A stretch of DNA of 64,000 nt, taken from NCBI GenBank assembly GCA_964389315.1, contig CAYMDJ010000001.1, positions 543 through 64,542 on the forward strand. Direction: 5' to 3'. Below are positions 9,547 through 27,180 of the stretch, in pieces. Source of the stretch: an uncultured archaeon. Its GTDB lineage: Archaea; Aenigmatarchaeota; Aenigmatarchaeia; QMZP01. The first letter of the stretch is position 1; the number at the start of each line of letters is the position of its first letter. The notes beneath the pieces were generated by a model, which was given only the letters and a program-made list of their open reading frames with translations, was not told the DNA's origin and ran no database searches. The position numbers and the translations under genes are program-made.

Positions 9547-9600
9547 GAAACCAGCCCCCGGAGTATTTCTGGGAGTGGAAAAGAAGCAAGTAACATGGTA

Positions 9601-9715
9601 GTTACCCTACAAAAAACTCCCATGTTATATAATATATGTATTGGTTATATTTATAGTTACCCTACAAATAGCTATCCTATTGGTCAGTAGGGTAATTAAT
9701 TCTTGGTGTAGGGTA
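9601..9715 (-). promoter_or_regulatory. Promoter/operator region of the giant gene. A 13-bp direct repeat GTTACCCTACAAA occurs twice (9601-9613, 9656-9668), and its inverted core GTAGGGTAA occurs twice (9687-9695, 9707-9715), in AT-rich DNA with TATA-like TATATAATATAT.
   Basis: The repeats are read directly from the sequence. They lie between the upstream gene end (9750) and the candidate start (9546) of the giant ORF. Confidence 0.45.
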
Positions 9716-9749: not shown

Positions 9750-10211
9750 TCAATAGATGAGGGCGAGGTCAGCTGATATGTTTGTCATGTAGGTGTCTGA
9801 ACACTCATCACCGCAGCACCAGACAAGCCAGACTTTTTCTGTATCCATGTCTTCTGTGCATGGGACCGTTGTCAGCGTGCCTGCGGATTCTGATTCAAGC
9901 GTCTCGTTGCAATTGTAGATGTCAACGTCCTCACCATCACGGAAATTCATGCTGACGCTTGTCAGGGCCTCGGTTCCAGGATTGTAGAAGGACGTGACCA
10001 GGTTGCCGTCAATGCACTCAGATGGGCCATACTCAATATGGCAGCCTTCATAGGACTCTAGGGAATGGTATTTCCCCGGTGCCGGTGAATTGTAATCTGT
10101 GAACAGGACAGCCGCCCAGATAAGGATTACTGCTGCGATGAGGGATACTGATATGAGCTTCTCATTCCTCTTGATGAATCCTCTGTTCATAAGACTCTCA
10201 GACCGGGACAA
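9750..10211 (-). CDS. Small membrane-anchored extracytoplasmic Cys-rich protein (153 aa). It overlaps the upstream radical-SAM gene by 14 bp.
   Basis: ORF track. It has a charged N-terminus, the TM segment LISVSLIAAVILIWAAVLF, and an ectodomain with 10 Cys plus sequons (NCNET, NIS). Confidence 0.55.
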   Translation of the reverse strand: MSRSESLMNRGFIKRNEKLISVSLIAAVILIWAAVLFTDYNSPAPGKYHSLESYEGCHIEYGPSECIDGNLVTSFYNPGTEALTSVSMNFRDGEDVDIYNCNETLESESAGTLTTVPCTEDMDTEKVWLVWCCGDECSDTYMTNISADLALIY

Positions 10212-11106
10212 GCTCTCTGAACCCCCTTCTATCAGCGTATTCCTTGAATATTCCCTCGCAGATATTAAAGTGTTTGCAGGCCCTGCACTGGGGACCCTTT
10301 ACCCTCCCATGCTTTGCCCTGTTCTTCTCCACATCAAGGTCCCTGAACTCAGGGCCTGCATGATGCTCCTTCATTCTTCCTCTGGTGCTGAACTCGCTCA
10401 GGTGCTTCAGGTCAAAGAGCATGTAGCACATGGGAACGTATCTTATCATGCTGTGATTTATGCCGTGCCTCAGGCCCGCCTGGACAGTGGGCTTCAGGTA
10501 ATCCTTTATCTCCGTGAGTGTGGGAACCACCTCGTCAAAATGCTTCAGGGCATTGCCCCTGGGATGGATGAACATGAATTCCATCCCGTCTGCCCCTAGC
10601 CTGGCATTGTTATCTGCTATCTGGGGAAGGAAGCGGTAATTGTCCTTAACTATCACCGTGTTCGTGCAGATATAGATGTCATTGGAAAGCTCCTTTAGGT
10701 TCCTGAGGCCCTGGGTGGCGTATCTGTAGGAATTTGACCGGGTCAAGTAATCATGAAGCTCCGGGGTGTGGCCGTGTATGGAGAAGACCGCGGAATTAAG
10801 GCCGGCATCAAGAATTCTCTCTGCAAAATCCCTGTAGTAGAACATCTTCCCGTTGGTGGTGAGGCTTATGGTCTCGAATCCGAGCTTCTTTGCATATCTG
10901 ACCAGCGGGATTATGTCCCTCCTTATGGTTGGCTCGCCCCCGAGGAGGTCAACGAAAGTAGAGCCTCTCTTCATGGCCTCAAGAAGCTCCTTCTTGACCT
11001 GCTCGGTGCTCATGGGAGGGAGCGTCCTCTTGTAGCCGCCGTCGTAGCAGAACCTGCAGTTGTTGTTGCATTCATATCCCATTATTATAGAGGTCTTTAT
11101 CTCCAT
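10198..11106 (-). CDS. Radical SAM protein of the CNNNCxxC type, with a C-terminal Cys cluster CRACKHFNIC. It is a paralog of 12813-13652 and 21996-22943.
   Basis: ECNNNCRFC cluster at residues 13-20, a GGEPT motif, and a conserved C-terminus ICEGIFKEYADRRGFRELVPV. The RBS GGAGG sits 5 nt before the ATG. Confidence 0.8.
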   Translation of the reverse strand: MEIKTSIIMGYECNNNCRFCYDGGYKRTLPPMSTEQVKKELLEAMKRGSTFVDLLGGEPTIRRDIIPLVRYAKKLGFETISLTTNGKMFYYRDFAERILDAGLNSAVFSIHGHTPELHDYLTRSNSYRYATQGLRNLKELSNDIYICTNTVIVKDNYRFLPQIADNNARLGADGMEFMFIHPRGNALKHFDEVVPTLTEIKDYLKPTVQAGLRHGINHSMIRYVPMCYMLFDLKHLSEFSTRGRMKEHHAGPEFRDLDVEKNRAKHGRVKGPQCRACKHFNICEGIFKEYADRRGFRELVPV

Positions 11107-11189
11107 GGTTCCTCCGGGCGGGTTTTCTGTGATGGTGTTTCTTTTGTGTTATGGTTTGGATTCAAAAGCAGGATCTTCATACCCCTCTA

Positions 11190-11215
11190 TTGATATTTAA
11201 ATATTAATATCCATT
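11190..11215 (-). promoter_or_regulatory. Archaeal TATA box (TTTAAATA) with a BRE-like context upstream of the radical-SAM gene 10198-11106.
   Basis: The sequence GATATTTAAATATTAATATC lies in the 230-bp intergenic gap. It indicates the 23-kb minus-strand run is more than one transcription unit. Confidence 0.35.
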
Positions 11216-11335
11216 TCTTAATGTGCTACCAACAGCTGATTCTGTGATGATAAGCCAGGTCGTTCTGACTTTTATAGGGGCTGTGTTTCTTATAGAGATG
11301 GGAAAGATTAGGAAAGAGTTGAGTAAAGTTAAGCT

Positions 11336-12787
11336 TTAGACCAGATGCCCAAGACCCCTAAGTGTATCCATTGTTTTATTTTCCACTTCTATCGCGGGGT
11401 TCGAATACATGACGGACATTCTTCTGTTATTCTCTGACCATTCGAACAATTCACCCTTTAGTTCCAGGGTAACTTTTTTCTCGTTATCTATTATGTTAGA
11501 TTGCTCTTTTGGATCGGCCAGTATATCAAACAGCTCTTCTGATTGACTAACTGATGATATATATTTCCACCCATTTCTTCTCACGCTCTGTTTTTGACCC
11601 GATTCTGTCAATTCGCTAAATATCGCATAATCTGATATCAGACTATCATTAATCATTAGTGGAGTCATGCTATTGCCTTGGAACGCATCGCTGGTTTTTA
11701 TTTCAACGATATCTAAAAGCGTTGGCATTATATCGATAAGCGAAACGCTGCTCGATATTCTTGCCGGATGCTGTCCAGGTATTCTAATCAAAAGCGGTAC
11801 ATGTATTATTTCGTCATATAGCTCAATATGCAAAAAACCCCCATGGTCGAGGAACTCCTCGCCGTGGTCAGCAGTGAAGACTATTATGGTCTGGTTTTGC
11901 AATCCAGATTCTTGCAGTGTTTTTATTATCTTGCCGACAGAATCATCCATGTATCTTATCGAGCCGTCATAAAGTGCTACAAGATGATTGAAATCATTGA
12001 TGGAAGATTTGTTGAATCCTGACCAAAAAATGTTCCTCACTACACCAAAGGCCTCGTCTTCGGGGTTGGACCATTTTGAATCAATGTTCATGAACAAATC
12101 CGTTTGTGTCTCCACCAAGCTTCCGTCATATCCAACGTCAAAGAGATTATTATACGGCTCTGGCGGTAAATATGGATCGTGCGTTATATAGGTGTGGAAG
12201 AACATGAAGAATTTTTCATGCTTTCCTCTCAGCCAAGCAAGAGTTTCTTTCAGTATTTCCTCGTTCGTAAAGACGGTGTTTTTGTAGATTTTGTATTCGT
12301 CAAAACCATCCCCGAACCCCAGCATGGGGTCAACGTTTCCTCCCCCCGTGAATGCCACTGTCCGATATCCATTATCCTTCAGTATTTCGGGGAGCGTTGA
12401 TATTGAATCATTCAATCGTTTTATGTTCGTGTTTTGTATGTTTATAATTCCGTGAACAGATGGGTACATGGATGTGAACATGGACATATGAGAAGACGCG
12501 GTAAGTGAGGATTGACTGAAGGCGTTCTCAAACAAAATACTTCCGTTAGCCAGAGCATCTATGTTGGGGCTGGTGTCTCTGTGGTAACCATAACAACCAA
12601 GATGGTCTGCCCTGAGAGTGTCAATTGATATAAGGATGATGTTACAGTCCGGGCATTTGTAGCTTTGATTTTCTGGTATGATTATGAAACCTGAAAGGCT
12701 CAGGGTAAAAAAGTATGAAAAGAGAGCTATGAATATGATAAGCAGCATAAAACCCGCAAGATGATATTCATCCATGTACCTGAACAA
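11336..12787 (-). CDS. Membrane-anchored sulfatase-fold (alkaline-phosphatase superfamily) enzyme with Thr at the nucleophile position. It is likely a phospho-alcohol (phosphoglycerol or phosphoethanolamine type) transferase rather than an FGly sulfatase.
   Basis: N-terminal TM segment, then DTLRADHLGCYGY ... LTASSHMSMFTSMYPSVHG ... TADHGEEF. The C/S-x-P-x-R FGly motif is replaced by T-A-S-S-H. Confidence 0.7.
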   Translation of the reverse strand: MFRYMDEYHLAGFMLLIIFIALFSYFFTLSLSGFIIIPENQSYKCPDCNIILISIDTLRADHLGCYGYHRDTSPNIDALANGSILFENAFSQSSLTASSHMSMFTSMYPSVHGIINIQNTNIKRLNDSISTLPEILKDNGYRTVAFTGGGNVDPMLGFGDGFDEYKIYKNTVFTNEEILKETLAWLRGKHEKFFMFFHTYITHDPYLPPEPYNNLFDVGYDGSLVETQTDLFMNIDSKWSNPEDEAFGVVRNIFWSGFNKSSINDFNHLVALYDGSIRYMDDSVGKIIKTLQESGLQNQTIIVFTADHGEEFLDHGGFLHIELYDEIIHVPLLIRIPGQHPARISSSVSLIDIMPTLLDIVEIKTSDAFQGNSMTPLMINDSLISDYAIFSELTESGQKQSVRRNGWKYISSVSQSEELFDILADPKEQSNIIDNEKKVTLELKGELFEWSENNRRMSVMYSNPAIEVENKTMDTLRGLGHLV

Positions 12788-12812
12788 TGATTTATTTCAA
12801 TCTTTAAATAGG

Positions 12813-13652
12813 TTATTGAATGGGGGTGAATTCCTTTTCCCCTGACAGGTTCAGGTAGCTCTTCCATATCATGGGGCAGTCCTGCCTGGAGCCACATGTC
12901 TTGCAGGCCTTGGCAAAGGCGAGCTCTGGCCCCTGCTTTGTTACTCCCTTTGCAATCTCCCTGTATCCCTCTGGTAGCGTGCAGAGGGGAAAGTGGAAGA
13001 GTTTTACAGGGATGCCTGCATTGAGGAGGGTGTCTGCTGCCCGGGATGTGTGGGGGACCAGTTTGCTGTATCTGATGAATATCCTTTTCAGGTTAATGAG
13101 GGCGTTCCCGGTGTATTTCATGTTTATGAAGACAACTCGCTCGACTCCAGCAAGGTTTCTGGATATGAAGCGGGCGGTCTCGTCCAGGCTGGCGTAGTTG
13201 AGCCTGCTGACTATTACTCTTAGCTCTACCCTGATTCCCAGGGATGTCAGGGCTTTAATTCCGCGCAGGGTCTGTTCCCAGCTTCCCTTGACCATGGTTA
13301 CTGAGTCGTGGACGGAAGGTAGGTGGCTGTATATCGCTATCCCAACCCTGAAGTTCTTTATTCTCAGATTGGAGAGTCTTTCAGCGAATTCCGGGTAGCT
13401 GAACATCCTGCCGTTGGAGACCAGGAAAAGGAGGGTGTCCGGACGGGTGTCCCTGATGTATGACATCGCCCTGAAGAAGTTTGGGGATATTGTTGGCTCA
13501 CCGCCGCTTATTCCAACGGTATGGCAGTCTTTCGGCAGCCTGTCTATGCACTGTTTTATCGTTTTCCAATGCACGTGGCCGGAAGGTTGGCTGCGGTCTC
13601 TTATGCAGGATATGCAGTTGTTGTTGCAAACCAATGTAAGGGGAATCTCCAT
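12813..13652 (-). CDS. Radical SAM protein of the CNNNCxxC type (paralog family).
   Basis: VCNNNCISC cluster at residues 9-16, GGEPT motif, C-terminal AKACKTCGSRQDCP. Confidence 0.75.
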   Translation of the reverse strand: MEIPLTLVCNNNCISCIRDRSQPSGHVHWKTIKQCIDRLPKDCHTVGISGGEPTISPNFFRAMSYIRDTRPDTLLFLVSNGRMFSYPEFAERLSNLRIKNFRVGIAIYSHLPSVHDSVTMVKGSWEQTLRGIKALTSLGIRVELRVIVSRLNYASLDETARFISRNLAGVERVVFINMKYTGNALINLKRIFIRYSKLVPHTSRAADTLLNAGIPVKLFHFPLCTLPEGYREIAKGVTKQGPELAFAKACKTCGSRQDCPMIWKSYLNLSGEKEFTPIQ

Positions 13653-13711
13653 AACACTTTTTTGCAGGAAGGATTTAAGTTAATGCGGTTGGTGAAACCC
13701 GTGAGCCGGCA

Positions 13712-15412
13712 TCATTCCTGGGTATGGTTGTGTGCCCATATGGGATAGGGATATGCCCACGGAGGATAGAGATATATCCTGTCCATGGAAGCGTTAAGGC
13801 CGGGGATTCTTCCTTTTACAGAGTAGAGCGTGTAGGTCAGGTTTTCCAGTGAATATTCGGCGACGGGTACTGTTTCATAAACCCTCAGGAATTCCAGGCA
13901 GGACTGGTTATATGGTGGTATCCTGCATATATAGCCGTCGTAGAAGAAAGCCATGCCCCTGTTTCCGATTATCTCTTCAACCGCGTTGCCATAAAAGGCA
14001 CCATGAAGGGGGACGGGGTTTGCTCCTGGAACGACTGATAGTGCATGATAACTCATGCTGAAAACATAGGCATTGTCAGGGAGTTCGCTGCCTAACATTC
14101 CCATGGCCTTTGTCTCAAGAATCCTTGGTTCGCTATAAAACCCGTATTTTTTTGTCCCAATGGTGTAGCAGCATGTGTTCTCAAGATAATCTCCTCCGGC
14201 AAGCGGGGGGATTGCGAATGATATCAACAGGAGCAGTGAAATTAGGGCCGTAATGAACCTTTTTTTGGTCAGATAAACATCCTGGACCAAAGAAATTCCC
14301 GATGACACAAATAAAAAGAGGAAGGATATTGCAAAGACCAGAAGCATGGGCTGCAGGAACCCGGATACTGCATAAAGACCAATAAAGGATATCGGTATCA
14401 GGCCAATGCTCCAGGGAAAGGGAGTTTTTTTCTGGAGGCCGAGAAAGATTCCTGCTGCTATCAGGATGTTGAACAGAAGTGGGTAATATAAGCCCGAAGC
14501 CATTCCTGCAAGAATCTCTGCTATACCGTTGCTCATGCCAGGGCAGGCTTGAAACTCTCCCAAAACCGAAAAAATTTGCTCATTAAGAACCTGTTGATTA
14601 AGCACGAATTCCGTGTTTATCTGCGTCCACAAGCGCTGCAAATATATTATAAAAAAGGATGAAGAGAGAATAATAGCTGCCCTGAACCTGTAGTCATGGA
14701 GCCTTTTAAGGAGGCTCCTCCTTGAATGGAGCATGATGATTATTGTAGGCAGCATGGCTATGAATTCTATCCTCGCATTCAGTGTGAATGCCAGGGTTAA
14801 CAGAAAGAGGTAAAGGGATTTCTGGTCATCATTCCTTAGGTAAAGGCACAGGCTGGAAAGGGATAGGAGAGCGAAGAAAAGGGCTATCGTGAAATCCTCG
14901 CCCATGGCAGAGGCTGCGACCAGAAAAGGATAGGCAGAAAACAGCGCCGAAGCGTAAAGGGCCGGGCGGGTGTCCTTCATGATCAGATACAGAAGAATGA
15001 AGGCAAGCGGTATGCATAACGTCCCGAAAAGGATTGACGTGTATATGGCAGTGTAATTTCCAAGCCCGAACACCAGGAAGGAGATTGAAAATATTATAAC
15101 AGAACCGAATGGCTTGAAATAGGGATGGCAATCCTCTGTTTCATATCCAGTGCAATAGCATATTTCCGCGTTCCCGTGCATCATCAGGTTCTTTGCAGCA
15201 TTCAGCCTGTAATCCTCGTCGATGAAATTGTGCTGCATCGGGGACGAGAGCCTTAGGAAAAGGCCTGCCGTGGTTATCAGTATCAGCAAAACCCACACCT
15301 CCTTTCTAATCCCCTTCAGGGAAGATGCAAGCGTTCCCCTGTCCATGAAAAGGAGAATGAAAACCAGTACGAGATTCAGCACAGTGCCCAGCATCAAGAA
15401 CGTCATCAGCAT
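13712..15412 (-). CDS. GT-C fold membrane glycosyltransferase (PMT/ArnT-like, multi-pass, 566 aa). It is not AglB, since no WWDYG motif is present.
   Basis: Roughly 12 predicted TM helices. The first extracytoplasmic loop carries the DEDYR acidic motif typical of GT-C enzymes. Confidence 0.55.
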   Translation of the reverse strand: MLMTFLMLGTVLNLVLVFILLFMDRGTLASSLKGIRKEVWVLLILITTAGLFLRLSSPMQHNFIDEDYRLNAAKNLMMHGNAEICYCTGYETEDCHPYFKPFGSVIIFSISFLVFGLGNYTAIYTSILFGTLCIPLAFILLYLIMKDTRPALYASALFSAYPFLVAASAMGEDFTIALFFALLSLSSLCLYLRNDDQKSLYLFLLTLAFTLNARIEFIAMLPTIIIMLHSRRSLLKRLHDYRFRAAIILSSSFFIIYLQRLWTQINTEFVLNQQVLNEQIFSVLGEFQACPGMSNGIAEILAGMASGLYYPLLFNILIAAGIFLGLQKKTPFPWSIGLIPISFIGLYAVSGFLQPMLLVFAISFLFLFVSSGISLVQDVYLTKKRFITALISLLLLISFAIPPLAGGDYLENTCCYTIGTKKYGFYSEPRILETKAMGMLGSELPDNAYVFSMSYHALSVVPGANPVPLHGAFYGNAVEEIIGNRGMAFFYDGYICRIPPYNQSCLEFLRVYETVPVAEYSLENLTYTLYSVKGRIPGLNASMDRIYLYPPWAYPYPIWAHNHTQE

Positions 15413-15485
15413 CTTATCTTCCCTTTAAAGGTTTAGTATCATAGAGCTTTATGTTAATCGGACTTTCCAGTGGTTGGGTCGCATA

Positions 15486-16517
15486 TTAAAGTGGCATGAG
15501 TGGATCAGGGGAGGAATAATCCCCACCAACGAGCTTTGCGATGAACCTTGAGCCTCCCTTGCATTTCCAGAGGTAGTCGCACTGCCTGCATGCATCCGGA
15601 ACGAATCTCAGGTATCTCAATTTCAGCATCAGGTCGCTGTTCCAGCATCCCATTATGTCAAGTGGATTCCCTATGTTCTCGCCTATATAATAGCTTGGCT
15701 TTGCAAACCCCCTTGGATCAATCACAAACCTGGAGTGCCCATCATCTGTTATGCCGCCGAGGGAAACGCTTTCCACTCTGGCAGCATCATAGAAGCAGAA
15801 GGGGATTGGATTAGCTATCACATAATTTGTCCCGCTGGTTCTGTTTATATTAATCAGCCTGTCAACAAGGGCCTTGAGGCCTTTTACTGAGGATGTTGCA
15901 TGCTGCTTTGTGGTTGGAATTGTTCTGTAGAGTCCCCAGTGGTCAAGGTCAAGTTCCTGGACGATTGCAGTGAAATAATCAAGATTCGTTATGTTTTCAG
16001 GTGTTGCAACGGTCCCTGCCCTAAGCATCCATATTCCAGTCTTTCTGACCATCCTGAATGAATCTATCTTCCTTCTGAAGGATTCGGCCGTTCCGCCGAG
16101 CCTTGCCTCGCTCTCAGGCGAGAAAGAATTGAGTGAGATGAGCAGGTTGTCTATGTATCTGCCTATTCTTACTGCAGCCTTCTTGTCAATGAGCGTCCCG
16201 TTGCTGTTCAGCAACACATCCATTCCAATGGATTTTGCATGGCGTGCCAGAACGAAGAGGTCCTTCCTAAGGAGCGGCTCCCCGCCCGTAAACCTTATAA
16301 TGTCTACTCCATTGTCATAGACGGCGTCTATTATTTCCTTTATATGACTGGCTGGCATTTCTGGAAGTGTCCTTCCAGCGCTGGCGAATGTGCTCCTGTT
16401 GAAGCAGAACTTACAGGAAAGGTTGCATCGTGCAGTAACTTCTATAATAATCTCGCTGGGCTTCTTTAGGACGCTGGGTACGGATGCATGGCGTTCTTCC
16501 GTAATTTCGTTTTCCAT
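15486..16517 (-). CDS. Radical SAM/SPASM-type peptide-modifying enzyme. It is the candidate maturase for the adjacent His-Xaa-Ser peptide.
   Basis: CNLSCKFC cluster, FTGGEPLL motif, C-terminal CRQCDYLWKCKGG (SPASM-like CxxCx5C). It lies 29 bp downstream of the peptide ORF on the same strand. Confidence 0.8.
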   Translation of the reverse strand: MENEITEERHASVPSVLKKPSEIIIEVTARCNLSCKFCFNRSTFASAGRTLPEMPASHIKEIIDAVYDNGVDIIRFTGGEPLLRKDLFVLARHAKSIGMDVLLNSNGTLIDKKAAVRIGRYIDNLLISLNSFSPESEARLGGTAESFRRKIDSFRMVRKTGIWMLRAGTVATPENITNLDYFTAIVQELDLDHWGLYRTIPTTKQHATSSVKGLKALVDRLININRTSGTNYVIANPIPFCFYDAARVESVSLGGITDDGHSRFVIDPRGFAKPSYYIGENIGNPLDIMGCWNSDLMLKLRYLRFVPDACRQCDYLWKCKGGSRFIAKLVGGDYSSPDPLMPL

Positions 16518-16546
16518 GTTTCTGATTGGTTTGCAGATTTAAACTA

Positions 16547-16819
16547 TCAGTATGATTCGTGGCTTGCGTGGGAGGAGTGGGAGGAGTGGGAGCCGTGGCT
16601 GGCGTGGTGGCCGTGCTGGGCGGTGACAGTGCCTGCATTCCAGGATATGTCAAAGCTGTTGGTGTGGTCGGCGGCAACCTCGGGCAGGAATGAGAGTATT
16701 GATATCGATGCCAGGAAGGCGCCAAGGCTGGCTGCCTTGTGCTTGGCAACCCTCCCCCTGTTGTCCAGGAGGAAGTCTGAGAACGTGTTCTTTATCTTGG
16801 GCAGGATTTCCCTCTTCAT
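16547..16819 (-). CDS. Putative precursor peptide or small protein (90 aa) whose C-terminus carries six tandem His-Xaa-Ser triplets (HAS-HGS-HSS-HSS-HAS-HES-Y), following a hydrophobic segment.
   Basis: Translated by hand: MKREILPKIKNTFSDFLLDNRGRVAKHKAASLGAFLASISILSFLPEVAADHTNSFDISWNAGTVTAQHGHHASHGSHSSHSSHASHESY. The RBS AAGGGAG sits 4 nt before the ATG. Confidence 0.6.
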   Translation of the reverse strand: MKREILPKIKNTFSDFLLDNRGRVAKHKAASLGAFLASISILSFLPEVAADHTNSFDISWNAGTVTAQHGHHASHGSHSSHSSHASHESY

Positions 16820-16883
16820 TCAACTCCCTTATTATTTGGGAACCTTCAAATAAATAGCTGAGTGGCGATTCGGTAAACGTCGC

Positions 16884-17351
16884 TCATGTCTTGGTGGTTT
16901 TCCTGCCCTGAGGGACTGCTTCTGAACGTCCTGGTTTCTCTGTCCCCTTGGCCCTGTCCGGGGTCCAGGGCTTTGCTATCCCCTCCGGGTCATCCAGCCA
17001 ATCGGATTCCTCAGGCTCCTCTGTTTCATCGGCCAATGTGTTTGTGGCAAGAGCCCTCCTTATTATGGCCTCCCTTATTGGCTGCTTCTTTGCGGCCTGT
17101 ATGACGTAGACAGAGTAGTTTATGAGCTCGTTGCTGAAGTCGAGGCAGAGCCTCTTCAGGTCAAGTCCCTTTTCCTTGGGCTTTATTGTGACGATAATCT
17201 GCTTCTTGGGTTCGCCCTCGAACAGGAAGTGAGCCTTGTCGAGGAAGACATAGGCAGCAGAGTAAATGACCTCCGGGGGATAGAGTTTCGTGTTAACGAG
17301 GACTGTGGCTTCCTTCCCCCCTGGAGCAATCCTTATTGTTTTGTGCAGCAT
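16884..17351 (-). CDS. Hypothetical protein (155 aa) with an acidic, Pro-rich C-terminal tail. It is the first gene of the peptide/maturase sub-cluster.
   Basis: ORF track. A TATA-like TATTTAAA lies about 25 bp upstream, and no family was recognised. The motif LCLDFSNELINY is only weakly reminiscent of the HxsD LLNDYxLRE motif. Confidence 0.4.
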   Translation of the reverse strand: MLHKTIRIAPGGKEATVLVNTKLYPPEVIYSAAYVFLDKAHFLFEGEPKKQIIVTIKPKEKGLDLKRLCLDFSNELINYSVYVIQAAKKQPIREAIIRRALATNTLADETEEPEESDWLDDPEGIAKPWTPDRAKGTEKPGRSEAVPQGRKTTKT

Positions 17352-17373
17352 GGAAATATTTTGTATACGGCGT

Positions 17374-18411
17374 TTAAATAGGAATGATTCCTCCCTGAAA
17401 AACGAGCGTGAGGACGTATCCTATAAGGATAAAGGCAGCGAAAGGCTGGGTCTGGCAGACCCTGACCGTAGCGAAGCCTATACTCCCCTGCTTCCTGAGG
17501 CGCTTTATCCTTTCAACGTCCGCCTTCGTGAGCTCATCCAGGCCGTGGACAAACCTTCTCTTCTTCTGCTGGAGGAATTCAACAAGGCTCGAGTTCAGGA
17601 AGCTTATCCTTGAATATTCTTTTCCCTTGCGGTATATTCCCTCTGCCATAATCATGCCCGGCACGAGTTTCTCTATTCGCACCTCGCTGGTGAACGTGTA
17701 GTATGCAAGGTGTATGAGGAAGAACCTGAAGAAAACGAATACACCGGCAACGAGGAGGAAGAACTGAAGGCTCGCCAGGGTGAAGAGGCCCTGGAAATCC
17801 AGGAGGGCCCTCAGGACTGCAAGGAGTGCGAAGAATGCCTCTGCCTTTGCGCTTATCGTGACTGAGAAGAGCTCATATACAGCAAAGAGGATAAGGATGG
17901 TTATGAAGTAGTCTGCCTCTATCCCGGCAAGCCTTATAAGGCCTGTGAAGAACCACATGAAGCCTATCAGGATGATGAATATGAACGATATCCTGTAGGG
18001 GTTGAGCGAATGGGTGATGGCTTTCTTTATGGAGGATGCCTTGCTTCTGATAATGACATAGGCAACCATGAACGCAAAGACCGGGATGAAGATGTTCGCC
18101 ATGTATGGGAGAACAAGGCTTTCTGAATAGAGTCCCTGCGGGAAGAGGAGCAGGAGGGCAGTGAAGAGCTTGGCATCCCCTCCTGGCCAGAGGCCGAGCC
18201 ACCAGAAGAGGAAGGCTATGAAGAAGCCATAGAGGAACGTGGAGGCTATAGCAAGTGTGTCTGTCAAGAGCGCGCCTGAAAGGGCCTGGTAGGCAATGCC
18301 CAGGAGCAGCAGGGCGAGGATGAGCCTGTTCCTTATTATCCCGTGCCTTATGTCCTGGTAGCATATGTATATGCCCAGCAACAGGACAGGGAGAAGAATC
18401 AGGTCCAGCAT
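17374..18411 (-). CDS. Archaeal prepilin/preflagellin peptidase (A24 family, PibD/FlaK-like) with extra C-terminal TM helices.
   Basis: Polytopic membrane protein with an N-terminal Asp region (YQDIRHG) and GLWPGGDAKLF (the GGDxKL second catalytic Asp motif). Confidence 0.7.
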   Translation of the reverse strand: MLDLILLPVLLLGIYICYQDIRHGIIRNRLILALLLLGIAYQALSGALLTDTLAIASTFLYGFFIAFLFWWLGLWPGGDAKLFTALLLLFPQGLYSESLVLPYMANIFIPVFAFMVAYVIIRSKASSIKKAITHSLNPYRISFIFIILIGFMWFFTGLIRLAGIEADYFITILILFAVYELFSVTISAKAEAFFALLAVLRALLDFQGLFTLASLQFFLLVAGVFVFFRFFLIHLAYYTFTSEVRIEKLVPGMIMAEGIYRKGKEYSRISFLNSSLVEFLQQKKRRFVHGLDELTKADVERIKRLRKQGSIGFATVRVCQTQPFAAFILIGYVLTLVFQGGIIPI

Positions 18412-18446
18412 TTTATGTTATTGGGGATTGGGATTAATAACCTGAC

Positions 18447-19886
18447 CTATTTCATTATGTTATCGTTCCTGTACCAGCTTAGGAAGGTTTTCCTGTCCCT
18501 TTCTGAGAAGACCAGCCTCCTGGTTATTGATTCCAGAACGTGGTTGTTAATCTTGCAGCGGTCATCCATGGCGAGCTTGGAGATTATTGTTCCCTGGGCA
18601 GCGTGTGTGTATATCGGACAGATGCCGCAGAACGGGTTCCATGCGCAGTTGTCGCAGAGGTATCCCTGCTTTGAGGATACGTCAATCATGCTGGTAGCAG
18701 TCTTGTTGTTGAAGACCCTGTTGTAGGGTGTGGTCTTTGCGTTTCCGAGCCTCAGCTCCTTGAAGAGCTTGCCCTCATCGCAGGTGTGTATGTCTCCCTT
18801 GTAGTTATAGAACAGCTGCCCGATAGCAGCTCCGCAGGGTGACTGTATGTCAACGAACATCGGATCCCATCTCTGCAGCAGCTTCTTGAGGAAGATGACT
18901 GTCAGATGCTCAAAGAACGGGGTCCTGGCATTGGTCTCTATTATGTAATCCAGCGTTTCGTCCCAGAACTTCAGGTATTCCTCGGGTGTGTAGCCTATGC
19001 TGTTCCATGCCTTGCCTGCAAGGCCTATGTTGTTCATGAACCTCAGGAAGATTCCGTCGAACCCGAGCCTGATATATTCGTCCACCATCTCCCTGCCATA
19101 ACCGAGTGAATGCCTGGTTATGGTGGTAAGGGCCCTGAGGTTGAAGTCGTGCTTCCATTCGTTCTTCATTCTCCCTATCCAGTATACAACGTCATCGTAA
19201 GTTCCCTTGCCATCGATGTATTTCCTGTTCCTGTTGTGGAGCTCCCTGGGGCCGTCCAGGGATGTTGCAATTCCCATAAGCCTCCTCTTGGCCAGGCTTC
19301 TGAGTATGTCCTCGTCCATTAGCGTGAGGTTTGTTACGAGCCTGAAATTCATTTTCTTGCCCGCTTTTCTGGATTTCTCCCTGGCGTAGTCAATTATGTA
19401 TTCCACCATAGGGAAGTTCATGAGGCAGTCCCCTCCCTGGAACTCTATCACGAGGCTGTCAGATGGGGTTTTCAGTATGAAGTCGACCACAGACCTTGCG
19501 GTTTCCTGGTCCATGTCATGCCCCCGCGATCCCTCACTGACCATGGAATGGCAGTATACGCAGGCGGAGTTGCACCTCATCGTGGGTGTGATTATATGGA
19601 GCGTGGGCGGCCTGAAGAGGAAGTGGTTCCTTTCTGCATAGGACCTGACGACATCCCTTACATTCCTCTCGGTGAGGATTATTCCCTTCTGTTCAAGGAA
19701 GGAGAAGAGAGTCGGGTCTTCCTCAACCCTCTCCAGCCTGAGGAGTTCATGCTCTTGCTCAGATAGGACTGCCCATGCACCGTGGTCTGTGGTCACAAGA
19801 TAACAATCTTCCAGCTTCTTGGAAACGAAATAGTTCGATGTATATTGCTTATCAGAGAAATCTGAGCTGAGGTGGGTTATTTCCAT
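18447..19886 (-). CDS. Radical SAM/SPASM enzyme with a roughly 100-aa N-terminal extension, which may be a peptide-recognition (RRE-like) domain.
   Basis: CNSACVYCHS cluster at about residue 105, GGDCLMNF motif, C-terminal CDNCAWNPFCGICP and a further Cys. Confidence 0.75.
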   Translation of the reverse strand: MEITHLSSDFSDKQYTSNYFVSKKLEDCYLVTTDHGAWAVLSEQEHELLRLERVEEDPTLFSFLEQKGIILTERNVRDVVRSYAERNHFLFRPPTLHIITPTMRCNSACVYCHSMVSEGSRGHDMDQETARSVVDFILKTPSDSLVIEFQGGDCLMNFPMVEYIIDYAREKSRKAGKKMNFRLVTNLTLMDEDILRSLAKRRLMGIATSLDGPRELHNRNRKYIDGKGTYDDVVYWIGRMKNEWKHDFNLRALTTITRHSLGYGREMVDEYIRLGFDGIFLRFMNNIGLAGKAWNSIGYTPEEYLKFWDETLDYIIETNARTPFFEHLTVIFLKKLLQRWDPMFVDIQSPCGAAIGQLFYNYKGDIHTCDEGKLFKELRLGNAKTTPYNRVFNNKTATSMIDVSSKQGYLCDNCAWNPFCGICPIYTHAAQGTIISKLAMDDRCKINNHVLESITRRLVFSERDRKTFLSWYRNDNIMK

Positions 19887-19966
19887 TTTATCACATTTTA
19901 GATTGTCGGGATTATATTTAAATCCGGTTAAACATGAACAGGACCTGGTGGATATTTAGCGTGGTG

Positions 19967-22003
19967 TTAATTATAGGAGGCGTCTGATATGCACCTCTCC
20001 ATTATTGAGGGGTCTATTATCTGGTGGCAGGCATCGGGATTCTTTTCTGCAAGGGCATTGCATAGTATTCTTATGTCAGGCTCGGTTATGTTTGTGCATA
20101 GTTCATTTTTGCCTGTTGAGGAGGCGAACTCAAGTATGCAGGAATCCCTGCCAGCCTCGCCCAGGAGCATGCATTCCTCAGGGTTGCCACCAATCAGGGC
20201 GAGGCAGTTGGACCTATACCAGTCAAGGTCTATGTAATTGCAGTATTGCATGTTCTTCGTGAGGAAGGCCAGGCAGAACATCTTCTCGTTGATTGGCCTG
20301 CCCCCACACTCCTGAGAGCCTGTCTCGACGCCCTCTCTGCAGAGGGAGGCTTCTTTGCTGCCTTCTATTCCCTCGCAGAAAGAGGTGTTATAATTATCAA
20401 CTGCCATGGCTATATAGTAATTATCATCAACCGTTATCTGCATTGTCTTGCTTGCAGGAGAGCCTGTGCGGCCGCTGGAATCGATGGGTGTGTATTCTAT
20501 CTTTAGAAAGTCTCCCTCCTCCAGTCCGCTAAGTTTTGTCTGGCTTCCCTCTCCGAAAAGTTTGCCGTTAACATACCATCTGTATTCTGATTCTCCTTCT
20601 ATGCTCAGGCCGAAATAAATTCCCTTTGCAGAGACCTGGGAACCCGGGTATAAAATCTTCGGGTTTGTTACTATGCCCCTGGCAAACGGGGGCAGGTCCG
20701 TTATCTTGATGGTTTCTGAATTTACTGGCTCGCCCTCGAGCCCTGTAAAGTCTATCGGATGGTATGCGGCTCTTATCTCGTCGCCATCCTTTACTGGAAC
20801 CAGTGAGAGGTCCAGGGGATTTGAGCGGGCGTTTTCTATGGGCTGGTTGTTCTTATACCAGACAAGTGGGGATATTGGTTCCGGCATCCTCTCAATGTCG
20901 TTCGGTGAGTGGTATTCAGTATGGAGATGGACATAACCGTTATTTGCGTCGAACCGGAGGGAAATGTATGCGCTCGGTCTTTTTGTGTTGGTAAGTAAGC
21001 CATATGTCTTTGTGCTGGTGTTCGTTCCCTGGTATTCGACCATTAAGGATATGTTGTGTATCCCGTCTCCCCTGCAGAAATCGCTTGTTATGAACGTCTC
21101 CGCATACCTTCCATTAGCGGGACGGGGTTCCCATGGTCCATCATCGCAGCGGAACCAAATCCTGTCCATGCTGTCATTGTATTCGGCCCTTATTATGATG
21201 TAATCGTAAAGCGTCATGTTCATGGAATTTTTCTCCTCCTGTGGGAAAATCAGGTCCTTAAGGTTCGGGTTATACAATTCTGTATATGGCTGGTCTGTCT
21301 TGGAGACTGAATAGGATGTGTATTCACCACCAGGTGTTTTGAATGCAAGAGTATTCTCCCCTTCGGAGAGTGAGTCGCTGCTTATGGAAACCGAACCTGA
21401 ATCGTAGCATGTCCATTCCTGCGGATGCTGCTCTGTGCCGTATATGATTTTGTCATGGTTCAGCGCAATCCGCAGCTTGATGCTGTTATTCACTGTATTC
21501 ATGTAAAGATTGATTGGATAATCCTCTGTAAAACCGTAGAGGGTGCTGCCGAGGATCTTGGTGTATTTGAAATGGTCGCTCCCGGATGGGAGGGCCGAGT
21601 TATCAAAGAAAGTGTATGATGTTATGAATTCTGTTATGGTGGCGTTGTTGATGAATTCGATGGAGTTGTTCGTTATCTTAATGTCGCTTTCATTGCTACA
21701 GGGCCCTGCAACGCCCTTGTCAAGGTCATAGCACATATTGTCCCTGAAAACCATCTCGTATAGCGGGGACCATGGCTCGTATTGTGAAATGCATATCCCA
21801 TTGGCTGACTTGTTTATGAGGGAGAATGTGATTGACTGTCCTTGAAAGAGCACATCGAGATTGTTGGGATTCTCTATATCGAGCCATTCATTAATCCCGC
21901 CCCCTGCAGAGCCTGTTTCCGTGGGCAACGGTTGCAGAACATGAAGGAGCATGATGATTATAAGCACGGCCAGTGGAAGCATTGCATACGTGAGCTTATT
22001 CAT
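19967..22003 (-). CDS. Secreted N-glycosylated protein (678 aa) with a Cys-rich C-terminal region.
   Basis: Signal peptide MNKLTYAMLPLAVLIIIMLLHVL, many N-x-S/T sites, and about 18 Cys in the last 140 aa. It overlaps the upstream rSAM gene by 8 bp. Confidence 0.6.
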   Translation of the reverse strand: MNKLTYAMLPLAVLIIIMLLHVLQPLPTETGSAGGGINEWLDIENPNNLDVLFQGQSITFSLINKSANGICISQYEPWSPLYEMVFRDNMCYDLDKGVAGPCSNESDIKITNNSIEFINNATITEFITSYTFFDNSALPSGSDHFKYTKILGSTLYGFTEDYPINLYMNTVNNSIKLRIALNHDKIIYGTEQHPQEWTCYDSGSVSISSDSLSEGENTLAFKTPGGEYTSYSVSKTDQPYTELYNPNLKDLIFPQEEKNSMNMTLYDYIIIRAEYNDSMDRIWFRCDDGPWEPRPANGRYAETFITSDFCRGDGIHNISLMVEYQGTNTSTKTYGLLTNTKRPSAYISLRFDANNGYVHLHTEYHSPNDIERMPEPISPLVWYKNNQPIENARSNPLDLSLVPVKDGDEIRAAYHPIDFTGLEGEPVNSETIKITDLPPFARGIVTNPKILYPGSQVSAKGIYFGLSIEGESEYRWYVNGKLFGEGSQTKLSGLEEGDFLKIEYTPIDSSGRTGSPASKTMQITVDDNYYIAMAVDNYNTSFCEGIEGSKEASLCREGVETGSQECGGRPINEKMFCLAFLTKNMQYCNYIDLDWYRSNCLALIGGNPEECMLLGEAGRDSCILEFASSTGKNELCTNITEPDIRILCNALAEKNPDACHQIIDPSIMERCISDASYN

Positions 22004-22943
22004 GCTCTATTATTTGTTTCGAATCTTTAATCACCTTTCCCATTACAGGAACGAATTCTGAAGGACCATATCTTTCTGCATACTCCTTCCAGGGGCCTTC
22101 ACATATCAGATCAAAGCGGCATCTCTTGCACTGGTCGAACTTGGCCTTTCCCTGGGTTTTCCTCAGCCGGTCGAAGTTCCTTGTTATTCTCTTTGCATCG
22201 ATTATCTCTGAAGGTGGCATGTATAGCTCTGAGCAATGCCTCTCATAGCCCTTCATGAAGCAGAAGGGATAGGCCTCTATCATGACAGGAGCCTCGTTCG
22301 AGACCGCAATATCTATTGCATCGTGGACGTATTTCATGACCTCTGATTTCCTGGGCACGAGCAGATTGAAGTTCTTCCATGCGTTGCCTACAGGGTGTAT
22401 GAAGGCCAGCTGGAACTGGTCCACCCTGAGGTCTGTAAATAGCTGGACGATATCCTGGAGGTGCCTGGAGTTTGGCTTGGTTATTACGGAGTTCATTACG
22501 ACTCGCTGCCCGAACTCCTTGAGGTTCCTTATTCCCCGGACCGCCTGGTCAAAGGCGCCGGGAGACCTCGTTATATAGTCATGTATTTCCTGAGTGTGCC
22601 CATGGATTGCAGGGGCGAACTCTGTCACACCCGCCCCGATCAGGCTGCGGACAAAGGGTTTATAGCACAGCCTCCTTCCGTTGGTCTGGATCTGGACGTG
22701 TTCGTATCCGATGTCCCTTGCGTGCCTTATTATCTCACAAAGGTCATTCCTCATGGTTGGTTCTCCGCCTGTAAGGACCACCTCATTTGCGCCGTGCGAG
22801 AAGCCAATCTCGAGGTTCCTCTTGACCTGTTCTGTGGAGAGGTCTCCTAGGTGCTTGTTGTGAGCCTGGGGGCATGAGAGGCAGTTGTTGTTGCAGGAAA
22901 ATCCCACCTTCAGGTCAAGGCGCTTTGTTTTTTCTTTGGCCAT
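21996..22943 (-). CDS. Radical SAM protein of the CNNNCxxC type. It is the closest paralog of 10198-11106.
   Basis: SCNNNCLSC cluster, GGEPT motif, C-terminus CKRCRFDLICEGPWKEYAERYGPSEFVPV. Confidence 0.8.
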   Translation of the reverse strand: MAKEKTKRLDLKVGFSCNNNCLSCPQAHNKHLGDLSTEQVKRNLEIGFSHGANEVVLTGGEPTMRNDLCEIIRHARDIGYEHVQIQTNGRRLCYKPFVRSLIGAGVTEFAPAIHGHTQEIHDYITRSPGAFDQAVRGIRNLKEFGQRVVMNSVITKPNSRHLQDIVQLFTDLRVDQFQLAFIHPVGNAWKNFNLLVPRKSEVMKYVHDAIDIAVSNEAPVMIEAYPFCFMKGYERHCSELYMPPSEIIDAKRITRNFDRLRKTQGKAKFDQCKRCRFDLICEGPWKEYAERYGPSEFVPVMGKVIKDSKQIIEHE

Positions 22944-26049: not shown

Positions 26050-27180
26050 CTAAGTCATTTTTTTAATAATGTCCATTGGTCTTGGAGGACAGCCCGGAAC
26101 CCATATAAGGTTATGCTTCCTAGCGAGTTCCCTTGTGCAGTTCCCTACACATACGACCTTGCCGTGCTTCTCTGGGACGTCGCTTTTTCCTGATAGGATG
26201 TCAACCCTCCTGAGGATTCCGTTATAGAAGAATATCGGCCACAATAAAGGGTTTCTCATTATCTGGATATTTAAGTCGATAAGTGCGCGGGTGCAACCCG
26301 AACATGTTTCGTCTGTGAACCAGTAATAGAAGTTGAATTTCCTGTCATGATCTGTCGGTTTCTTGAATTTCATCTTATGCGCAGATAGCTCGTTAAGAAC
26401 TTCCTTTGGGAAGGATATTCGCCTTTTCCCTGAAGCGATTCTGAGGTGCTCTATCTTCATTGGGTCCATTCCCATGAGCATAGAGGACAGGAAATCCACC
26501 TTAAGGGCGTCTGTTCCTATGACAAGCAGGTTTATGTTTTTTACTGGATTGCCTGTAGAACCGGGGCCATTCCCTTCAACGCCGCTAGTTGCATCCACCA
26601 TGGAAAGGTCTGGCTTTATGGCAGAATATAGCTTTGCTATGTTCCTGTGAAGGTCTCTGTGAGAAGACCGCTTTTCCTGAAGTGTCAGGAGCCCTTTCTG
26701 GTTCTTAAGGCAAAGGGTAACCCCTGTTTGTGAATGGGTCTTGAGCTTGGATATGTTTATGTATTCTGAGTTAAGAACCAGTCTCGGTATTGATATCTTG
26801 CGGCCGGCTGCATTGAGGTATATCCTCTCGGTCTCATATAAGTCTACTAGGGCCACGCCGGTCTTTTTGCAGAGTTTCTTGTATCCTGTTTTATTGAAAA
26901 CGTGGCGGGTGTTTTCTGATACAGGACCCTCTCCCACGGCTATTTCATCTATATCAATGTCTTGGAGGTATTCTATAAGACCTTCCACTACCTTTAGGTT
27001 TGTTATGTAAGGTGTCCCGGGGCGGTATTCGCCGACTATGTTAGGCTTTATGAAAACCTTTTTTTTCTTTGGTCTGTAACCAAAACTGGCGAGTGATTCG
27101 TATACGTCTTGTCTGGTTTTCCTTCCTAGTTTGAATATTTCAGGGTTCATGAAATCACTAGATGTTATTATATTTTTCAT
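26050..27180 (-). CDS. DUF362-family protein (function unknown, frequently Fe-S associated).
   Basis: Motifs IKPNIV, LKTHSQTGVTLCLKNQKG and VDATSGVEGNGP. It overlaps the upstream rSAM gene by 23 bp. Confidence 0.55.
   Translation of the reverse strand: MKNIITSSDFMNPEIFKLGRKTRQDVYESLASFGYRPKKKKVFIKPNIVGEYRPGTPYITNLKVVEGLIEYLQDIDIDEIAVGEGPVSENTRHVFNKTGYKKLCKKTGVALVDLYETERIYLNAAGRKISIPRLVLNSEYINISKLKTHSQTGVTLCLKNQKGLLTLQEKRSSHRDLHRNIAKLYSAIKPDLSMVDATSGVEGNGPGSTGNPVKNINLLVIGTDALKVDFLSSMLMGMDPMKIEHLRIASGKRRISFPKEVLNELSAHKMKFKKPTDHDRKFNFYYWFTDETCSGCTRALIDLNIQIMRNPLLWPIFFYNGILRRVDILSGKSDVPEKHGKVVCVGNCTRELARKHNLIWVPGCPPRPMDIIKKMT

Follow-up and report, generated by a model that had tools for sequence, protein, structure and literature searches.

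A probable archaeal His-Xaa-Ser peptide-maturation system with a linked A24-family peptidase on an Aenigmatarchaeota contig

The subject of this report is a group of genes on the minus strand, at positions 10198-22943 of a 64,000-nucleotide stretch of DNA, hereafter the window, from an uncultured archaeon of the Aenigmatarchaeota (assembly GCA_964389315.1, contig CAYMDJ010000001.1, positions 543 to 64,542 of the forward strand). One of these genes is an open reading frame (ORF) of 90 amino acids (aa) ending in a run of His-Xaa-Ser (HxS) triplets. We consider it likely, with good confidence, that the group is a complete archaeal His-Xaa-Ser (Hxs) peptide-maturation system, in which the 90-aa ORF would be the ribosomally made precursor and a peptidase of family A24 would be dedicated to its processing. 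What the analysis shows directly are family assignments and gene linkages; the genes and peptide segments of the window concerned are the following.

21996-22943, minus strand: HxsC4-like radical-SAM paralogue, 315 aa (NF038332, 170 bits, under the 500-bit cut-off; orthologues in most archaeal and Candidate Phyla Radiation (CPR) loci)
19967-22003, minus strand: secreted protein, 678 aa
18447-19886, minus strand: HxsB radical-SAM/SPASM peptide maturase, 479 aa (TIGR03978, 395.7 bits, cut-off 370)
17374-18411, minus strand: Hxs-linked A24 aspartic intramembrane peptidase of the prepilin/preflagellin type, 345 aa (Pfam PF01478, 39.4 bits, cut-off 26.5)
16884-17351, minus strand: HxsD, small partner of HxsC, 155 aa (TIGR03976, 46.6 bits, cut-off 50, E 3e-12)
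16547-16819, minus strand: putative short precursor of the HxsA4 type, 90 aa (NF038313, 37.5 bits, cut-off 55; NF038309, 30.7 bits, cut-off 65)
16721-16819, minus strand: putative leader (n-region) of the peptide, aa 1-33 (motif LPKIKxxxxxFLLxxxGxxxK; F16, G22 and G33 invariant in alignment A1)
16667-16720, minus strand: hydrophobic segment of the peptide, aa 34-46 (AFLASISILSFLP), and putative c-region, aa 47-51 (EVAAD), placed by hydropathy and the AxA pattern
16553-16606, minus strand: six tandem HxS triplets, aa 72-89
15486-16517, minus strand: putative accessory radical-SAM enzyme with a SPASM/twitch-type auxiliary domain, here called rSAM3, 343 aa (Pfam Radical_SAM, 85 bits)
13712-15412, minus strand: PMT_2 (GT-C) membrane glycosyltransferase, 566 aa, accessory (Pfam PMT_2, 28.3)
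12813-13652, minus strand: HxsC-like radical-SAM maturase, 279 aa (TIGR03977, 205.7 bits, cut-off 267.9)
11336-12787, minus strand: membrane-anchored protein of the sulfatase/alkaline-phosphatase superfamily, between the HxsC-like and an HxsC4-like gene
10198-11106, minus strand: HxsC4-like radical-SAM paralogue, 302 aa (NF038332, 139 bits, under the 500-bit cut-off)

The gene order is thus HxsB-A24-HxsD-HxsA-rSAM3-PMT_2-HxsC, plus the extra paralogues. A second leader peptide, HxsD gene or A24 gene was sought in the window and none was found, exactly one of each being present; tRNA and Rfam scans of the window gave no match.

The preliminary description of this stretch had presented Hxs as a system defined by comparative genomics only and of unknown chemistry, a statement outdated by the work of Li et al. 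(Nat Commun 2026, PMC13128918), who report that the E. coli HxsABCD genes form a broad anti-phage system which blocks phage DNA entry. The E. coli HxsA (214 aa) combines a signal peptide and a peptidoglycan-binding domain with five Arg-rich HxS repeats, whose Arg residues are proposed for DNA binding. Its non-canonical N-terminal cleavage requires HxsB, HxsC and HxsD, and the cleaved periplasmic form carries +8 Da in the last HxS repeat, a shift which was not assayable in deletion mutants; HxsC binds HxsD, while in vitro reconstitution failed because the 214-aa HxsA was insoluble. The same paper places 99.7% of Hxs systems in Pseudomonadota, archaea being unmentioned, and gives a four-gene order D-B-C-A for 99.6% of the proteobacterial systems (PMC13128918).

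The precursor gene (16547-16819, minus strand) encodes 90 aa (MKREILPKIKNTFSDFLLDNRGRVAKHKAASLGAFLASISILSFLPEVAADHTNSFDISWNAGTVTAQHGHHASHGSHSSHSSHASHESY, then the stop), with a Shine-Dalgarno-like GGGAG about 5 nucleotides 5' of its ATG and a gap of 29 bp before the radical-SAM gene at 15486-16517. Its C-terminus, HASHGSHSSHSSHASHESY and the stop, consists of six consecutive H-x-S triplets (aa 72-89) followed by Y, and the repeat shows an imperfect 9-bp tandem period at the DNA level. All that had been stated beforehand of the letters proved correct: the 90-aa ORF with its good ribosome binding site and six triplets, the 29-bp gap, the CxxxCxxC and CxxCx5C motifs of the radical-SAM neighbour and the small protein at 16884-17351.

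Alternative ORFs overlap the peptide gene on both strands, which might suggest a chance low-complexity reading frame; this is extremely improbable, and is refuted by conservation. The repeat is the sole run of three or more HxS triplets in the six frames of the window, and the chance expectation of six, from composition, is 7e-11. The search for homologues recommended in the preliminary description returned 14, at 41-93% identity, in which the non-repetitive N-terminal two-thirds, leader included, are conserved along with the repeats. A profile search covering 1.84 billion representative proteins selected 620 clusters at E<=1e-3, mostly of 75-140 aa and matching over their full length. Conservation extends to the whole protein, in bacterial as well as archaeal phyla, and to its genomic position, and three JGI metagenome contigs contain the identical gene, with neighbours and gene order unchanged.

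Against the HxsA4 and HxsA3 models the peptide aligns end to end, residues 6-89 corresponding to profile positions 2-83 of 93, both scores being below cut-off; the canonical HxsA model, TIGR03979, does not match the window peptide. Six bacterial peptides were scanned: five of them, which come from Saccharibacteria, Elusimicrobia, Bdellovibrio and one proteobacterial metagenome-assembled genome (MAG), pass the HxsA4 cut-off at 69-112 bits, and the sixth, that of locus L088 (L numbers denote the surveyed loci), fails it; among the five archaeal peptides scanned, only the Woesearchaeota one (L033) passes. Because bacterial relatives pass the cut-off and the architecture is common to all, the window peptide is, by sequence comparison, a divergent member of the HxsA4-type short-precursor family already modelled by NCBIfam. 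The RiPP-like (ribosomally synthesized and post-translationally modified peptide) module, put forward beforehand as a novel candidate, is therefore not new as such, since NCBIfam holds models for HxsA3, HxsA4 and HxsC4; the new element is the link with an A24 peptidase.

The architecture shared by the family comprises a basic leader, a small residue, a 13-17-aa hydrophobic stretch and a site of the AxA type, after which H-T-N-x-F is often found, and the HxS triplets, of which relatives carry from 3 to 51, with W, Y or C at the end. An alignment of 54 leader regions yields a common motif, (K)LPKIKKxIxxFLxSEEGKIsK, in archaea and bacteria alike, and the leader hidden Markov model (HMM) matches the window ORF at E 1.6e-15. 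In the window peptide, Kyte-Doolittle hydropathy peaks at aa 31-44, ahead of a c-region with small residues at -3 and -1 (V48, A50), A50 being invariant and the AxA pattern kept across the family; the core begins around HTNSF and closes with the six triplets. Hydropathy and the -3/-1 rule together point to the hydrophobic segment and c-region as a signal-peptide-like export element, while the leader (aa 1-33) may be the docking site of the maturases, later removed by the A24 peptidase, and the HxS core the likely target of the radical-SAM enzymes.

Two variations on this architecture were encountered. Leader-bearing peptides whose HxS triplets number just one or two (...HSHHASHTSY is an example) are found at L037, L040, L046, L111, L112, L114 and L133; these minimal cores suggest that the essential modified motif lies around H-x-H-H-[AG]-S-H-x-S-[YW], rather than in a long repeat. 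The HxsA leader is also borne by long fusions (L153 2739-4046, L132 13380-14237, L155 4452-5504, L023 4104-5741 and L035 3311-4825). Three of the five run into Hint/intein-like sequence of the autoprocessing type, one into a long (TST)n repeat, and in one a domain of about 330 aa comes after 38 HxS triplets.

The core maturases could be assigned to their families with different margins. HxsB (18447-19886) is matched by TIGR03978 above cut-off over residues 19-471, that is positions 3-465 of the 466 of the profile; Pfam Radical_SAM and SPASM match as well, with about 95 N-terminal residues ahead of the radical-SAM core, and its nearest relatives, at 56-82% identity, lie in syntenic loci. In HxsD (16884-17351), for which TIGR03976 is by far the best match, the HxsD domain spans aa 20-103, and the C-terminal tail beyond it is acidic; the motif region aligns with Aeromonas HxsD, and the identical gene in L169 and L171 carries a precomputed PF27806:HxsD match. 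For the HxsC-like protein (12813-13652), TIGR03977 is by far the best match, the runner-up reaching 99 bits, and identity to Aeromonas HxsC is 28% over residues 113-376 of that protein, the N-terminal 108 aa or so being missing. By homology, these three are taken as the conserved maturases. A resemblance between this locus and the bacterial Hxs system had been pointed out in the preliminary description; membership in Hxs holds for the peptide as well as for the small protein and the radical-SAM enzymes, and the HMM scan advised there, with HxsB above its cut-off, goes further than a parallel. Judged by these assignments, the archaeal locus is a genuine Hxs system.

Further small proteins were noted in connection with HxsD. 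Many archaeal loci encode, after HxsD, another HxsD-like protein 75-86 aa long (L003 6082-6318, L004 1677-1919, L006 7574-7810, L008 5469-5708, L172 7192-7452), probably the partner of an HxsC4-like paralogue; the window has one HxsD only. The ORF at 9750-10211 (minus strand, 153 aa), considered as a second HxsD, was rejected, being a Cys-rich membrane-anchored protein without a match to the HxsD HMM. It has no family match, and always comes after the orthologue of the HxsC4-like gene 10198-11106 (L001, L003, L004, L019, L091, L092). Orthologues of the latter gene are themselves kept in L001, L003, L004, L008, L009, L012 and L019.

Comparative genomics indicates that such loci are not rare. 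One locus found with the peptide, L001, is fully syntenic with the window, and seven further peptide-seeded loci all contain HxsD, several HxsC- or HxsC4-like radical-SAM genes and at least one short HxsA (three HxsA genes in L005), with a clear HxsB orthologue in all but L003. Used as a query, a single HxsB protein found no relative in the genome collection; the archaeal HxsB alignment A2, searched against one genome per GTDB species, succeeded, with at least 551 relatives, of which the best 80 loci (L009-L088) were analysed. Of these, 35 are archaeal (Iainarchaeum, Aenigmatarchaeota, Woesearchaeota, Nanohaloarchaea and Nanobdellota/Nanoarchaeota) and 45 bacterial (CPR bacteria, Elusimicrobia, Myxococcota, Omnitrophota and Bdellovibrio), and 43 of the 80 hold a short HxsA with at least three consecutive HxS triplets, mostly directly after HxsB. 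A locus from a MAG labelled Altiarchaeota (L172) is also Hxs. Taxon labels are the titles of the MAG records and survey ORFs were called mechanically; the loci are phylogenetically non-independent and include a few duplicates (L004 = L010, L015 = L116). The closest named relatives of both peptide and HxsB are in Candidatus Diapherotrites/Iainarchaeum MAGs. The earlier claim that no archaeal counterpart had been characterised stands in that sense only: archaeal Hxs loci are uncharacterised, yet they occur in MAGs of Iainarchaeum, Aenigmatarchaeota, Woesearchaeota, Nanohaloarchaea, Nanoarchaeota and Altiarchaeota.

The element that is new in this locus, the A24 peptidase (17374-18411), has D20 (in YQDIRHGIIRN) and D79 (in WPGGDAKLF) as catalytic residues, and both motifs are invariant in 39 out of 39 full-length relatives (alignment A3); neither an NCBIfam model nor a PDB sequence matches the enzyme. 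In the HxsB survey an A24 gene is present in 26 of the 35 archaeal loci; it usually lies within 1 kb of HxsB, the common arrangement being A24-HxsD-HxsB-HxsA. Of the 45 bacterial loci, 10 have a weaker A24 relative, 1-9 kb away, and the other 35 have none within 10 kb. The reverse survey, in which metagenome contigs were scanned with the subfamily motif W[PTS][AGP]GDAKLF alone, gave 266 relatives; among the best 80 loci, HxsD or HxsB lies beside the A24 gene in 51 and some Hxs-type gene is found in 64, just 6 loci of at least 6.5 kb being devoid of any. The residue equivalent to G33, at the boundary between n-region and hydrophobic stretch, is Gly in 44 of 46 peptides from strong-A24 loci, as compared with 7 of 20 in A24-less bacterial loci, where the others have Ala or Ser (Fisher's exact p = 3e-7, an association confounded by phylogeny). 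Because of the reciprocal gene linkage and the invariant catalytic Asp residues, this A24 subfamily is probably a leader peptidase dedicated to the short HxsA precursors, which it would cut after the conserved Gly. Class-III-like processing by the prepilin peptidase, raised as a possibility in the preliminary description, thereby gains strong comparative support. In the library searched, no relevant paper turned up on prepilin peptidases linked to radical-SAM peptide maturation or RiPPs, nor on archaeal Hxs.

A canonical class III signal has a short charged n-region, K or R at -2, G or A at -1 and about 20 hydrophobic residues, and archaeal A24 peptidases also process non-pilin surface proteins. 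Set against this background, several observations speak against the interpretation given here. The candidate A24 site is atypical for class III: the n-region has 33 aa, position -2 lacks K/R, and the hydrophobic stretch, just 13-17 aa long, has a conserved AxA after it. Such a pattern agrees with processing of the ordinary kind, by Sec and signal peptidase I; cleavage by signal peptidase, whether by itself or on top of that by A24, is therefore possible. Nine archaeal HxsB loci, Nanohaloarchaea and Nanobdellota among them, are without A24 within the available sequence, several having truncated flanks, and the correlation between Gly and A24 is confounded because all four archaeal peptides from A24-less loci have Gly. 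More generally, the HxsC-like protein, HxsD and the peptide all score under the NCBIfam curated cut-offs, and the rSAM3 family is not exclusive to Hxs, as seen from the four homologues looked up (L172-L175).

Some of these points would suit a different explanation, rather unlikely in our judgement, in which the A24 enzyme is a housekeeping prepilin or pre-archaellin peptidase lying by chance beside Hxs, and aa 1-50 are removed at the AxA site by signal peptidase I. The conserved V48 and A50, a hydrophobic region of a length typical of Sec signal peptides, the lack of K/R at -2 relative to G33 and the 35 of 45 bacterial loci with no A24 gene within 10 kb all agree with it, and the 64-kb window contains no second A24 gene, which leaves a housekeeping role possible. 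A chance neighbour, however, would hardly be expected to show reciprocal linkage across several phyla, with HxsD or HxsB usually directly adjacent in the 51 loci found by the A24 motif, nor to lie usually inside the operon, in the order A24-HxsD-HxsB-HxsA. The enzyme moreover has a subfamily signature of its own (W-x-A-G-D-A-K-L-F), outside the NCBIfam models, and pilin or pilus-assembly genes were seen near L003 only. At that locus, from Diapherotrites, assembly genes of the type IV pilus kind, for a T2SSE ATPase and two T2SSF platform proteins (L003 1-1758), lie about 4 kb upstream of HxsD, an arrangement not seen at the other loci examined. A 345-aa gene at the edge of L004, considered as a missing A24, was rejected, since it encodes a Cys-rich secreted protein.

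The radical-SAM enzyme adjacent to the peptide (15486-16517) had been paired with it in the preliminary description. The place of hallmark maturase belongs to HxsB (18447-19886) and the HxsC-like protein (12813-13652), rSAM3 being found in a minority of Hxs loci and also outside Hxs. Its CxxxCxxC motif reads CNLSCKFC (C31/C35/C38) and its C-terminal CxxCx5C reads CRQCDYLWKC (C310/C313/C319); seven Cys (31, 35, 38, 241, 310, 313 and 319) are conserved in 15 of 15 orthologues and invariant in a 34-sequence alignment. A full SPASM domain has a seven-Cys motif holding two auxiliary clusters, and the four conserved auxiliary Cys found here (C241, C310, C313, C319) suggest a single, twitch-like one; the Pfam SPASM model does not match rSAM3, nor was an N-terminal RRE domain found. 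There is no curated family match, the best NCBIfam hits being NirJ2-, AhbD- and PqqE-like at about 90 bits. The closest structures to its predicted fold are peptide- or protein-modifying SPASM/twitch enzymes, yet identity to SuiB, ChlB, anSME, CteB, PqqE and SkfB is just 15-22%, and the best sequence-level PDB matches include BlsE, MoaA and viperin. Identity as a viperin was rejected: NF038283 gives 79.5 against a cut-off of 180, and the conserved Cys-rich C-terminal domain is absent from viperins; the pVip match of PADLOC, a collection without Hxs models, reaches 89.7 bits on the radical-SAM core only and is generic viperin-like. The family is large: at E<=1e-20 it counts 368 clusters, the majority of which belong to CPR and DPANN, and its members are annotated simply as "radical SAM/SPASM".

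Orthologues of rSAM3 occur in about 15 of some 170 loci, often immediately after HxsA, as in L005, L028, L033, L042, L043 and L129. These six cases, the gap of only 29 bp in the window, the presence of a radical-SAM gene after the peptide in the window, L001, L003, L005, L006/L007 and L008 (L004 being different), and a predicted fold closest to peptide maturases would all be in keeping with a self-contained new RiPP module, merely resembling Hxs and with rSAM3 as main maturase. We regard such a module as very unlikely: HxsB, HxsD and the HxsC-like gene are in the same locus and track the peptide across the approximately 170 loci, of which just 15 or so have rSAM3; the gene downstream of the peptide belongs to differing radical-SAM families according to locus; rSAM3 has no leader-binding (RRE) domain; and its homologues are also found without Hxs core genes.

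The four homologues looked up illustrate the last point. In L172 the gene lies in a full Hxs locus, beside HxsA, PMT_2 and an A24-like gene; in L174 there are five HxsC4-like paralogues, and no HxsB, HxsD or HxsA within 10 kb; in L173 and L175 it is found among glycosyltransferase and epimerase genes, again without HxsB, HxsD and HxsA. The possibility thus arises that rSAM3 and PMT_2 form a sub-module for glycans or surface proteins, acting on a sugar or on a giant Ser/Thr-rich protein instead of HxsA and merely co-located with Hxs. To this we allow an appreciable chance, if clearly short of even: the two genes are together in the window, L001, L172 and L173; the L173 and L175 homologues are surrounded by glycosyltransferases (GT1, GT2, GT28), epimerases and oxidoreductases; BlsE, MoaA and viperin work on nucleotide or sugar substrates; and the window itself holds GT2 genes, WbuX, AsnB and a Ser/Thr-rich surface protein of more than 3200 aa. 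The frequent location of rSAM3 straight after HxsA in Hxs loci, and its pairing with five HxsC4-like paralogues in L174, favour on the contrary a role within Hxs, and rSAM3 is plausibly an accessory enzyme, a third HxsA maturase. The PMT_2 glycosyltransferase may serve the O-glycosylation of exported Ser/Thr-rich proteins.

One or two genes downstream of the rSAM3 homologues of L174 (11344-11553) and L175 (12472-12675), in bacterial clusters without HxsA, a conserved ORF of 67-69 aa was observed, with the motif MKK..LKK.K......F..T.TV.......D...TFLF.N.FP; it could be a different partner or precursor for the rSAM3 homologue.

From the assignments and linkages we infer a chemistry, a cleavage site and a biological role, by analogy with E. 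coli HXS as regards the modification. The 90-aa precursor would be synthesized on ribosomes, and HxsB and HxsC-HxsD would act on it in the cytoplasm while it still bears its leader, by which covalent modification would be guided to the HxS repeats; the extra radical-SAM enzymes, two HxsC4-like and rSAM3, may add more modifications. The hydrophobic segment and the AxA site would then target the peptide to the membrane or direct its export, and the A24 peptidase would cut off the leader on the cytoplasmic side, G33 being the most likely residue after which it cuts; signal peptidase may cut as well, at AxA. The modified His/Ser-rich peptide would finally be found on or outside the cell surface, and may there constitute a barrier against virus entry. 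The antiviral role is weakened by the repeats having no Arg and by the absence of a peptidoglycan-binding domain and of a periplasm; with H[AGS]S repeats in place of Arg-rich ones and without that domain, the E. coli effector mechanism is not simply transferable either.

Composition also brings to mind a quite different product, a surface or secreted peptide binding Ni, Zn or Cu, whose poly-His array would be rigidified by the radical-SAM enzymes and which would not be antiviral. There are 9 His in the last 22 core residues, with no Arg or Lys, at variance with the proteobacterial HRS repeats; most family members have a conserved His 1-2 residues past the predicted signal-peptidase site; and a His-rich relative weakly matches the zinc-uptake protein ZrgA. 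That match, however, is of low complexity and far under cut-off, no gene for a metal transporter, metallochaperone or metalloregulator was seen in the loci examined, and the sole experimental precedent for Hxs is phage defence. We hold metal binding to be unlikely, if still a live alternative.

Returning to the Hxs interpretation, we tentatively extend it, at clearly less than even confidence, to DPANN archaea and to a minority of CPR, Elusimicrobia and Omnitrophota: in these, radical-SAM maturation may be coupled to a dedicated A24 leader peptidase, and the modified His/Ser peptide displayed on the surface, possibly as a barrier to virus entry. If so, leader-guided modification in the style of RiPPs would be merged with processing similar to that of class III signals, in cells without periplasm, and prepilin-type peptidases would be suggested for the "non-canonical" HxsA-cleaving activity of E. 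coli HXS.

The locus lies in a region rich in related enzymes. Ten radical-SAM genes are found in about 30 kb (10198-39827), an unusually dense arrangement; besides those described, they include a Zn-ribbon (27158-28384), a B12-binding (28374-29888) and a radical SAM/SPASM (29868-30989) protein, as well as genes at 32735-33790 and 38811-39827. Interspersed with them are GT2 glycosyltransferases and WbuX-like, AsnB-like and DUF362 genes. An ORF of more than 3200 aa at 1-9606 (minus strand), which runs past the window start, is rich in Ser, Thr, Gly, Asn and Asp, with an N-terminal membrane anchor; it looks like a giant surface protein, its L001 counterpart having 5524 aa. The sulfatase-family protein (11336-12787), considered as a substrate of an anSME-like SPASM enzyme, was rejected, as it lacks the C/S-x-P-x-R formylglycine motif and is missing from the syntenic L001. 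Genes for Orc1/Cdc6 (42312-43514, plus strand) and a family-B DNA polymerase (46563-49238, minus strand) are 3 kb apart, and a chromosomal replication origin may therefore be nearby. These two genes bear out the archaeal assignment made beforehand from the letters, as do the nearest relatives of the peptide and HxsB, in Iainarchaeum/Diapherotrites MAGs; the host would be a DPANN archaeon, closest to that group.

The locus and its relatives bear on three questions left by E. coli HXS: which radical chemistry produces the +8 Da shift, which protease cleaves HxsA and how far the system extends outside Pseudomonadota. Hxs is widespread in DPANN archaea and CPR bacteria, to be compared with the published 99.7% in Pseudomonadota. 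The precursors described here, minimal at 73-130 aa and sharply conserved in their leader, would lend themselves well to a reconstitution of HxsB and HxsC chemistry, and the A24 subfamily reciprocally linked to Hxs genes is a specific candidate for the leader peptidase. Were the system antiviral, it would represent a surface-acting defence in ultra-small, host-dependent archaea; were it not, one maturation machinery would be serving different effectors.

Compared with known systems, the window locus shares with proteobacterial Hxs an HxsB above the family cut-off, an HxsC-type core 28% identical to Aeromonas HxsC, a related HxsD motif region and a substrate that bears an N-terminal export signal along with tandem HxS repeats; in the two systems alike, the N-terminus is expected to be processed. 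The precursor, in contrast, has 90 aa, where proteobacterial HxsA has 190-214, and carries a long conserved leader of the LPKIK..FL..EEGK type, absent from Aeromonas HxsA; it closes, at the extreme C-terminus, with H[AGS]S repeats instead of the Arg-rich HRS, and there is no peptidoglycan-binding domain. The HxsC-like protein is without the N-terminal domain, of about 108 aa, of proteobacterial HxsC. Gene order is B-A24-D-A-rSAM3-PMT2-C as opposed to D-B-C-A, with A24, two HxsC4-like genes, a SPASM/twitch radical-SAM gene and PMT_2 as additions, and the host is an archaeon, without periplasm or murein.

The A24 enzyme resembles PibD, FlaK and EppA in family and in both catalytic Asp motifs, and its candidate substrate recalls class III substrates in the positive N-terminus and the conserved Gly just before the hydrophobic stretch. 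It departs from them in the 33-aa n-region with its conserved recognition motif, the absence of K/R at -2 and the short hydrophobic stretch with AxA; the substrate, moreover, would be a peptide destined for radical-SAM modification, and the enzyme forms its own Hxs-linked subfamily. With respect to the NCBIfam models, the two radical-SAM paralogues match HxsC4 (NF038332) best, yet at 139-170 bits against a 500-bit cut-off, while the precursor has the same full-length architecture as HxsA4 and HxsA3, that is a leader, a hydrophobic segment and a C-terminal run of HxS triplets.

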